From: an uncultured Planctomycetia bacterium
Lineage (GTDB): Bacteria > Omnitrophota > Gorgyraeia > JAFGHF01
DNA length: 47,452 nt
Direction of reading: 5' to 3'
Assembly (NCBI GenBank): GCA_964586605.1
Contig: CAZPGX010000003.1
Location: 1 to 47,452 of the forward strand
Both the position numbers and the translations under genes were made by a program. This document shows, piece after piece, positions 1 to 47,452 of this stretch. A model generated the notes under the pieces. That model saw nothing but the letters and a program-made list of their open reading frames with translations. It was not told the origin of the DNA and did no database searches. How positions within the stretch are numbered: the stretch's first letter is position 1; every line of letters begins with the position of its first letter.

Positions 1-76
1 TGGTGGAGCAGAGGAGGATTGAACTCCCGACCTCCAGAGTGCGATTCTGGCGCTCTCCCAGCTGAGCTACTGCCCC
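1..76 (-). tRNA. tRNA-Ala (anticodon CGC), 3' CCA encoded
   Basis: The reverse complement folds as a 76-nt cloverleaf. Acceptor stem is GGGGCAG/CTGCTCC with the G3:U70 alanine identity pair. D arm is GCTC-AGCTGGGA-GAGC. Anticodon stem is CCAGA/TCTGG with loop ATCGCAC (anticodon CGC). T arm is GGGAG-TTCAATC-CTCCT, followed by ACCA. Confidence 0.9.
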
Positions 77-46745: not shown

Positions 46746-46774
46746 ATTATAGCAAACCTTTCCTAGATTTGCAA
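46746..46774 (-). promoter_or_regulatory. Sigma70-like promoter of the NIL-ferredoxin/COG2122/cysE unit
   Basis: The minus strand reads TTGCAA-17 bp-TATAAT, followed by a GGAGG RBS. Confidence 0.6.
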
Positions 46775-46790
46775 ACAAAATTTTGCAAAT

Positions 46791-46872: not shown

Positions 46873-47262
46873 CTATTGGTTTTCTTCCTCTTTAAGGGCT
46901 TCGCCCTTGCGGTCTATCTTAAAAAGCTGAGTAAAGTCAATGTTAAATATGTCCTGCTCGCGCAGGATATAGAGATTGCCGATTATCTTGACCTCGAATT
47001 TTTCCTCTCCGGTCTTGCTATCATGGCTTTTTAAAACCGAAAGGTCCTTTAAGCGCGGGCTGGAGTTGGTATATCTTTTCAGCCAGGCCTCTAATTCCTG
47101 GGCACTTTTTAAGACAGTGTGGTCGCGAACAGAATAGACAAAATGCTTTTGGGTTTTTGTTGTAACCCCATTTTTTATGGAGGCTTCAGATAAAAGAATA
47201 TCCCTTCTATAGCGATCCAGGGAAGTTAAGTTTTTAAACAAGATATCGCGCATTTTATCCAT
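46873..47262 (-). CDS. Hypothetical protein (about 126-129 aa; start at MDKM or MRDIL)
   Basis: The ORF has a GGAG upstream. I recognise no family. It is charged with no TM or signal peptide. Confidence 0.55.
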   Translation of the reverse strand: MDKMRDILFKNLTSLDRYRRDILLSEASIKNGVTTKTQKHFVYSVRDHTVLKSAQELEAWLKRYTNSSPRLKDLSVLKSHDSKTGEEKFEVKIIGNLYILREQDIFNIDFTQLFKIDRKGEALKEEENQ

Positions 47263-47287
47263 AACTCCAATTTCTATAAGTAGTTGC

Positions 47288-47330
47288 AAAACAAGCCGGG
47301 TTGTCTAATTTACCTTTAGCAACCCGGCTT
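47288..47330 (-). terminator. Intrinsic terminator in the 5' leader of the hypothetical gene
   Basis: The minus strand reads AAGCCGGGTTG-(16 nt)-CAACCCGGCTT-GTTTTG, an 11-bp perfect stem. It sits about 25 nt upstream of the start codon. Confidence 0.65.
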
Positions 47331-47403
47331 CCCGAATAAGGCCCGTGGCTTTACAGCCTTGCGTCATCTCCTCTTATTATCTTAGGAATTTGCCTTTTCG
47401 GGT
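47322..47403 (-). promoter_or_regulatory. Candidate riboswitch aptamer, GEMM-I (c-di-GMP-I)-like sequence blocks
   Basis: The minus strand reads ACCCG-AAAAGGCAAA-[UUCCU..AGGAG hairpin]-AUGACGCAAGGC-[GGCU-GUAA-AGCC ...]-GAAGC-CGGGU. The closing helix ACCCG/CGGGU shares its 3' strand with the left arm of the terminator. Confidence 0.4.
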
Positions 47404-47452
47404 AAATTAAGACTTTTTAAAAGTATTTAGTTATTACCCAAAAAATATATTG

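Follow-up and report, generated by a model that had tools for sequence, protein, structure and literature searches.

A conserved GEMM-I-related leader element and its predicted alternative folds upstream of a gene for a basic Omnitrophota protein

Introduction

In contig CAZPGX010000003.1 (assembly GCA_964586605.1) from an uncultured Omnitrophota bacterium, a structured RNA leader precedes a gene for a conserved hypothetical protein. The locus raises the question whether this leader is a riboswitch of the GEMM-I (c-di-GMP-I) type, which responds to cyclic diguanosine monophosphate (c-di-GMP), and in which direction it would switch. The window, i.e. the whole analyzed stretch of 47,452 nucleotides (nt), is numbered along the forward strand. 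The element is located on the minus strand at 47403..47288, close to the window end. An original prediction made from the sequence alone had proposed a GEMM-I-like ON switch with a terminator as expression platform.

Our analysis shows a genuine, conserved cis-regulatory RNA with a relationship to GEMM-I. We give about even odds (roughly 50%) to the reading that a lineage-specific, diverged GEMM-I descendant precedes a conserved Omnitrophota gene as part of its 5' leader and acts as an ON switch, with a selected combination of anti-aptamer fold and terminator as the default state.

Conservation of the leader element

Every string listed in the original prediction was found on the minus strand and in the proposed order (Table 1). 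The 128-nt region folded with -46.4 kcal/mol (z = -4.8 versus shuffled sequence), and the whole element was kept upstream of the orthologous gene in 15 further distinct leaders. Together with a significant match to the Rfam clan CL00126 (E = 8.8e-5), these results place the element beyond chance. The family covariance model found only this one copy in the window.

The leaders were recovered via the regulated gene. In total, 16 distinct leaders carried the element (the window, L007, L009/L013, L016 to L022, L025, L028, L032, L034, L155 and L156), a sample of low statistical power. Invariant features were the UCCU/AGGA stem with its loop of 11 mostly A-rich nt, a GGC lying 4-8 nt ahead of a GCC, the block GCCACGGGC, CGG(G) and CCGG-UU.

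Although the listed strings are present, two of them did not hold up as conserved features. GACGCAA, proposed as a conserved junction, is found in the window only. It lies in a linker which varied between 1 and 12 nt and was not conserved in sequence among the other leaders. The closing helix ACCCG:CGGGU was pairable everywhere, but the covarying partner of CCCG was the CGGG at 47334..47331.

Relationship to the GEMM-I riboswitches

At gathering thresholds, the sole Rfam match in the whole window was a tRNA gene at 4..76 on the minus strand (60.8 bits), and no riboswitch was reported. When the last 553 nt were scanned permissively, one meaningful hit emerged, to the c-di-GMP-I-GGC model (RF03167, clan CL00126), at 47314..47403 on the minus strand with 28.9 bits. 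The gathering scores are 35 bits for RF01051 and 59 bits for RF03167, and the window copy lies under every gathering score of the c-di-GMP-I clan. A covariance-model search had been suggested as a check on the riboswitch claim; its outcome is thus significant by E-value, yet below the cut-off of each model. In the RF03167 alignment an insert of 27 nt, containing GACGCAA, was left unaligned.

The orthologous leaders gave a clearer picture. All 13 homologous Omnitrophota loci with the same gene context that were scanned matched the c-di-GMP-I clan with 26-43 bits. Two of them, L013 (37.0 bits) and L018 (36.0 bits), exceeded the RF01051 cut-off, and L034 reached 31.6 bits with this model. The best orthologue score was obtained for L025 on the GGC model (43.2 bits, E = 7e-7 in a 62-kb search). 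RF03167 was the best-scoring model for the window and most orthologues, all of them far under its gathering score. Since all scanned loci matched the clan and two passed the RF01051 cut-off, the relationship to GEMM-I is real as judged from the covariance-model scores. This part of the original claim stood, but the window copy does not reach family level by itself.

The covariance-model similarity spans both halves of the GEMM-I aptamer. Positions in common are the 5' junction (cgaaAAAGGCAAA), a hairpin at the P1a position, AAAGCC-A-CGG and AGCCGGG-U-GCCGAA. At the 5' junction both order and sequence match RF01051 (AAAAGGCAA(A)), and the 3' blocks match the P2 strands, the bulged A, C92 and the 3' tail of the consensus. 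AAAAGGCAAA aligned to the RF01051 junction consensus AAAGGCAAA including its unpaired G, which we take to be G20 of the Vibrio cholerae Vc2 aptamer. The AAAAGGC of this strand was aligned to aaAAAGGCAAA of RF03167 and RF01051, which makes G47394 the G20-equivalent. This position was a G in all 16 leaders, and GGC was found in 14. The window furthermore carries AA before AGCC and a C after GGGUUG, candidate equivalents of A47/A48 and C92 in a register that varies with the alignment. A further trait shared with RF01051 is that the 5' arm of a terminator-like hairpin contains the 3' strand of the aptamer.

Other parts have diverged from RF01051. In type 1 c-di-GMP-I riboswitches a GNRA tetraloop on P1a docks into a receptor in P2. 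Here, the P1a-like hairpin combines an invariant stem and an A-rich loop of 11 nt, and P2 is cut down to approximately 7+2 base pairs (bp), which leaves no room for a receptor. The invariant GGC before GCC forms a mini-hairpin or, in an alternative register, expands J2/3 from AA to NNAA. Additionally, the 5' junction is tied to the loop region of P2 by a covarying 11-bp helix, a competitor of the aptamer fold. The window GACGC (47364..47360) is out of register, and the GC:GC pair in the RF01051 register held in 62% of the cells. An alternative register for this pair with the invariant GGC was pairable and invariant. The element is not filed as a member of RF01051 or RF03167, because the score of this copy stays under the gathering score, GACGC with its GC:GC pair is not conserved and the tetraloop-receptor is lacking.

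A short P2 and the 5' cgaaAAAGGCAAA are shared with RF03167, but that model has a G after GACGC (GACGCGAA) where 13 of the 16 leaders have an A. RF03167 is presumably a variant defined by an altered binding-site base, with no established ligand. GEMM-Ib riboswitches of Geobacter, which reportedly sense 3'3'-cyclic GMP-AMP, are a precedent for GEMM-I descendants that kept the scaffold and changed the ligand specificity. However, those have an A at the G20 position and retain the canonical GACGC and tetraloop-receptor scaffold, whereas the equivalent base is invariably G in our leaders.

These comparisons bear on two simpler explanations. A canonical c-di-GMP-I riboswitch as originally drawn, with the closing helix ACCCG:CGGGU, a GACGCAA junction and the extra GNRA hairpin as an insertion, is highly improbable. 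All its strings are present, the pairing is possible and the covariance-model match is significant by E-value. But no match reached the gathering score, GACGCAA is specific to the window and unaligned, CCCG covaries with another partner, and the comparative data contradict the drawing. Very little probability is likewise left for a constitutive structured 5' untranslated region (UTR) or attenuator without any sensor, whose resemblance to GEMM-I would be fortuitous. The sub-threshold score of the window copy and the lack of covariation in the GEMM-specific helices would fit such an element. E-values down to 7e-7, clan matches in all scanned loci, strong purifying selection on unpaired bases and the gain or loss of the module as a unit, both described below, speak against it.

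No published report of the element was found in the literature that could be searched. A metagenome scan with the core CCACGGGCC-N-CGGG-N-CCGG yielded no family member among the matches listed (120 stretches), which were chance matches in G+C-rich DNA. A scan of viral contigs with a more specific pattern found nothing.

Two predicted folds of the leader

Two folds of the leader were compared. In model A, the 11-bp helix H1 (47402..47392 with 47342..47331) closes a three-way junction with the hairpins H2 and H3 and is followed by the terminator-like hairpin H4. Model B is of the GEMM-I type. Here AGCC-A-CGG pairs with CCG-GGUU to form P2, together with CC:GG and a weak P1, and the ACGG region pairs with CCG at 47327..47325. 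The P2 strands match the RF01051/RF03167 consensus AgCcAcgG...AGCcggGcUgCC. The models exclude each other, as P2 draws on the 5' arm of H4, on the 3' half of H3 and on part of the H1 3' strand. From the geometry, the linker of 2-3 nt would be too short for a pseudoknot which keeps the full H1.

Model A is backed by covariation. In a structure-aware alignment of the 16 leaders, 96.3% of its pairs were formed and six pairs were changed on both sides, two in H1 and four in H4. This number of compensated pairs was reached by none of 500 shuffles, and in slid controls the paired fraction dropped to 27-56%. RNAalifold independently gave H1, H2 and H4 with six compensated pairs on an unfitted MAFFT alignment. 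Pair counts parsed by hand agreed with the alignment-based counts for both models. H1 and H4 exist and covary, and the module is conserved.

The outer pair of H1 was C-G in 14 leaders, U-G in L007 and U-A in L155, where the 3' strand ends in CGGAU and complementarity is kept. In L018 the strands read AAACAA and UGAUU and form a C-G pair, and in L156 GCUUUUUCGGG is still complementary to CCCGAAAAGGC. The stem of H2 was invariant in all leaders, so that covariation speaks neither for nor against it, and its loop was highly conserved. In H3 just two one-sided C-to-U changes occurred. The AAAGCC trailing H3 matches AAAgCc of GEMM-I (the A47/A48 region and the start of P2), and AA preceded A/GCC in 13 of the 16 leaders.

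Model B is backed by homology and by the conservation of bases that are free in model A. The 3' strand of H1 becomes the top and loop of P2 in this fold. ACGG, the AAA before GCC and the H2 loop are all unpaired in model A and nevertheless invariant, pointing to strong purifying selection on these bases. A GEMM-I-type fold would explain their invariance; in P2, ACGG is the bulged A plus CGG. Furthermore, non-consensus cells numbered 12 in the 5' arm of H4 and 22 in the 3' arm; the stronger conservation of the 5' arm is expected if it serves two pairings. An alternative P2 conformation thus appears plausible from homology and conservation. Compensatory changes were obtained for none of the GEMM-I-specific helices. 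Those observed instead support a three-way junction which the prediction had not described.

Predicted termination and direction of the switch

In every one of the 16 leaders, model A either was the minimum-energy fold or lay no more than 1.4 kcal/mol above it, whether or not the 3' arm of H4 was included. When P2 was forced to form, the best structure was less stable by 2.3-16.4 kcal/mol (mean 6.9). Since model A wins in every leader, H1/H3/H4 would be the unliganded default. Any ligand effect must then favour the P2 fold and hence destroy H4, and an ON switch best fits these calculated energies. The binding energy of c-di-GMP to Vc2, reportedly about 13-15 kcal/mol, could cover the gap to P2. 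The opposite reading, in which model A would be the aptamer of an OFF switch, was disfavoured, as this fold is already the most stable one unaided. The predicted ON direction can be retained: mutual exclusion, with the GEMM-I-type 3' strand inside the 5' arm of a terminator-like hairpin, and energetics agree on it. The structural reasons, however, differ from those originally given.

In the window H4 has a stem of 11+4 bp, and the first two U of the tail UUGUUUUG also pair with AA at 47330..47329. The 11-bp hairpin followed by GUUUUG, on which the terminator claim was based, is thus present here, but a clean U-run was found in just 3 of the 16 leaders. A simple terminator scanner did not call H4 in the window, probably owing to the bulge. 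Across the family the tail after H4 contained on average 4.4 U per 8 nt compared with 1.75 expected from the composition of the elements. In the distant locus L023, described below, a Shine-Dalgarno sequence directly follows H4. Intrinsic termination at H4 is plausible in the window and is not established as the output of the family.

A conserved (A)UUAUAAC(U) was observed after H4 (window 47282..47294 on the minus strand and equivalent positions), with GCAACU as the window version. A second hairpin involving UAUAAC was not consistently predicted. An open reading frame (ORF) of 20 codons, MTQGCKATGLIREAGLLKVN, starts from the AUG inside GAUGACG (window 47305..47367, minus strand) and is specific to the window. 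A leader peptide was rejected, as no ORF was conserved on either strand among the leaders.

Proposed model of the switch and alternative explanations

For the diverged GEMM-I ON switch we propose the following course. In the default conformation, supported by covariation and energetics, H1 ties the 5' junction of the aptamer to the would-be top of P2 and closes the three-way junction with H2 and H3. GCCGGGUUGC is then free to form the strong hairpin H4, and H4 followed by UUGUUUUG in the window would terminate transcription (gene OFF). Alternatively, AGCC-A-CGG would pair with CCG-GGUU as the GEMM-I P2 and rebuild a GEMM-I-like junction with the bases equivalent to G20, A47/A48 and C92. A bound cyclic dinucleotide would stabilize this fold. 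c-di-GMP is our default guess, because the G20-equivalent is a G. The P2 fold would remove the 5' arm of H4 and allow read-through (gene ON). We infer four of these steps: the formation of the P2-type fold, ligand binding, the identity of the ligand and intrinsic termination at H4.

Several observations weigh against this model. Model B was 95.7% paired with zero compensatory changes, the same as in shuffles. Its P2 was 96% pairable and contained four disruptive cells (L021 has C-A, and the top pair is U-U or C-U in places); the G-to-A change of L021, which would break P2, is compensated in H4. Neither GACGC nor the GC:GC pair beneath the binding pocket, both in upper case in the consensus of RF01051, was conserved, the AAA following GGC was variable, and the GNRA tetraloop and its receptor are absent. 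The C92-equivalent, in a register that depends on the alignment, was C in 14 leaders and U in L007 and L009. H1 would already have formed by the time the 3' P2 strand is synthesized, an unfavourable kinetic order for an aptamer. Runs of four or more U after H4 were restricted to the window, L028 and L032. Finally, two distant loci, L023 (2373..2500) and L024 (2380..2476), keep the sequence of H4 and lack GGCAAA, H2, a GEMM-like 5' half and any Rfam hit.

L023 and L024 encode distant homologues with 30-33% protein identity. Both loci keep the two arms of H4 (GCCGGGUUGCC...GGUAACCCGGC), an AGCCA motif and a CCCC:GGGG closing helix, and fold into a closed domain followed by H4. The sequence of H4 is thus selected even without a GEMM-like domain, and its conservation on its own does not require P2.

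A contact between the loops of H2 (AAUAAG) and P2 (CUUAUU), replacing the tetraloop-receptor, was considered and rejected (4.56 observed versus 4.49 +/- 0.22 expected by composition). It had looked attractive at first, as L007 seemed to covary.

Alternatively, the covarying three-way junction (H1/H2/H3) with H4 could itself be functional, as a distinct structured leader that would be either an aptamer of a new class or a regulatory domain with a tertiary fold. The GEMM-I sequence would then be vestigial, P2 at most a transient competitor, and the ligand could be something other than a cyclic dinucleotide. This fold holds all of the covariation; it is at or near the energy minimum in every leader and forms first during transcription. 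The closed domain directly followed by H4 in L023 and L024, without GEMM-like sequence, and the loss of the canonical pocket elements (GACGC and the GC:GC pair) point the same way. Nevertheless, we consider it rather unlikely. J12 (2-4 nt) and J23 (1-12 nt), the strands of the junction, are variable both in length and in sequence, an unusual trait for a binding pocket. With H4 free of any competitor and the fold already favoured over all others, no obvious switch would be offered. Approximately 45 ordered matches to the GEMM-I consensus and the two orthologues passing RF01051 would remain unexplained.

A somewhat wider reading, which we hold tentatively as possible though hardly probable, is that a re-engineered GEMM-I descendant senses a ligand other than c-di-GMP, or that the three-way junction itself is a new aptamer, and that it controls the conserved basic protein of unrecognized fold. 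The remodelled pocket would consist of the loss of GACGC, the added invariant GGC or expanded J2/3, and the A-rich 11-nt loop in place of the tetraloop-receptor. Its unliganded state would be a selected, covarying anti-aptamer three-way junction.

The conservation of H4 in the distant loci also brings a protein into consideration. The small basic gene product or another factor could bind an element centred on H4, possibly with autoregulation, and the GEMM-like part would be accessory or a relic. Both H4 arms are conserved where the protein is only 30-33% identical and the 5' domain differs; the protein is basic (isoelectric point (pI) 9.1-9.7) and always adjoins the leader, and most H4 copies are without a clean U-run. 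This explanation is doubtful, however. The protein has no recognizable RNA-binding fold or family, five loci encode it without any H4, and the conserved GEMM-like 5' half would be left unexplained.

Regulated gene and genomic context

The regulated gene encodes a basic protein of 126 amino acids. An alternative ATG at 47262 was not common to its homologues. In total, 54 homologues with 59-82% identity were found, and the named ones belong to the Omnitrophota. No match to Pfam, NCBIfam, PADLOC or PDB sequence profiles was obtained. An AlphaFold 2 model was confident (predicted local distance difference test (pLDDT) 85) and largely beta-stranded; a Foldseek comparison with the PDB revealed no significant fold match (best E = 0.035).

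The gene order upstream is conserved, with lepA, (yacP), lepB, a CDP-alcohol phosphatidyltransferase gene, plsY, the intergenic region and the regulated gene. The original prediction had placed the promoter beyond confident recognition. Contig L001, which extends the window, revealed a strong near-consensus promoter (TTGACA-17-TATACT with TG upstream of the -10 box) about 80 nt 5' of the element. The stop codon of plsY lies inside its -35 box (window 47430..47452 on the minus strand and beyond; L001 3735..3835).

Close to the expected start site, at a distance of a few bases, a hairpin with a run of six to seven U was observed (e.g. AAAUUGCUUCGGGCAAUUUAUUUUUU in L009). This 5' UTR hairpin is conserved, covaries (GCCC/GGGC in L011) and is present even in loci without the module; from its sequence it looks like a canonical intrinsic terminator. 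Between this hairpin and the element the window carries a perfect palindrome, ACUUUUAAAAAGU (47412..47424, minus strand). It is kept in nearly all loci, module-less ones included, and could be an operator for a DNA-binding protein.

Five loci (L011, L012, L014, L015 and L031) were without the whole module of about 150 nt, i.e. the aptamer-like domain and H4, and retained the promoter, the 5' hairpin and the palindrome. This distribution indicates gain or loss of the module as one block.

Downstream of the regulated gene, PilZ proteins were encoded in L028 and L031, with a weak match in L156, and a REC-HD_5 (HD-GYP-type) protein in L025 and L026. These neighbours are a modest contextual link to c-di-GMP. 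HTH_17 proteins were also found among the downstream neighbours; in L009 and L156 a HisKA_7TM/GAF kinase gene then follows the HTH_17 gene. This recurrent c-di-GMP-flavoured neighbourhood of other genomes is absent from the window. There, a promoter-like TTGCAA-17-TATAAT with TG (46746..46775, minus strand) is located in the 146-nt spacer before a NIL/4Fe-4S ferredoxin gene. Because of this site, the downstream sulfur-metabolism-like genes (NIL-Fer4, ApbE-like and hexapeptide acetyltransferase) may be transcribed separately.

Table 1. Coordinates of the features in and around the leader element (window numbering unless a locus is named)
Feature	Position	Strand	Remark
ACCCG	47403..47399	-	String of the original prediction, present
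AAAAGGCAAA	47398..47389	-	String of the original prediction, present
UUCCU / 11-nt loop / AGGAG hairpin	47388..47368	-	String of the original prediction, present
AUGACGCAAGGC	47367..47356	-	String of the original prediction, present
GGCU-GUAA-AGCC	47358..47347	-	String of the original prediction, present
ACGG...AAGC	47346..47327	-	Present
CGGGU	47326..47322	-	String of the original prediction, present
11-bp hairpin AAGCCGGGUUG/CAACCCGGCUU	47330..47320 with 47303..47293	-	GUUUUG directly after
H1 5' strand CCCG-AAAA-GGC	47392..47402	-	Pairs with 47342..47331 in the minimum-energy fold
H2 hairpin UCCU / 11-nt A-rich loop AAGAUAAUAAG / AGGA	47369..47387	-	GEMM-I P1a position
Variable linker GAUGACGCAA	47359..47368	-	Carries the GACGCAA of the original prediction
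H3 mini-hairpin GGC(U)-GUAA-(A)GCC	47347..47358	-	GGC:GCC pairable in 16/16 leaders
Invariant ACGG	47343..47346	-	Within the invariant block GCCACGGGC
H1 3' strand GCC-UUAUU-CGGG	47331..47342	-	Complementary to 47402..47392 in 16/16 leaders, although sequence and length change
Alternative P2, AGCC-A-CGG (47350..47343) with CCG-GGUU (47327..47321)	47321..47350	-	Excludes H1, H3 and H4
H4 terminator-like hairpin AAGCCGGGUUG-CUAA / loop AGGUAAA / UUAG-A-CAACCCGGCUU	47293..47330	-	Minimum-energy fold
U-rich tail UUGUUUUG	47287..47294	-	6 U in 8 nt, U-run of 4
Regulated gene, conserved basic 126-amino-acid hypothetical protein	46873..47253	-	GGAG at 47268..47265
Downstream neighbour genes	L025 3324..4307; L028 3107..4433; L031 3698..5375; L156 1881..4055; L009 3660..5765

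Conclusions

Taken together, the results suggest that the element most probably acts in the manner of a GEMM-I ON switch, its covarying OFF-state fold being unusually elaborate. If confirmed, it would represent a phylum-specific branch of GEMM-I that is mostly missed by standard annotation, as 2 of the 13 scanned loci pass the Rfam cut-off and the window copy does not. It would also be a natural example of a riboswitch whose state without ligand is under selection as an elaborate alternative fold.

To our knowledge, few second-messenger receptors are known from the Omnitrophota. Confirmation would tie an uncharacterized conserved protein of this phylum to cyclic-dinucleotide signalling. In this uncultured phylum, a validated riboswitch would offer one of few direct ways of studying signalling.

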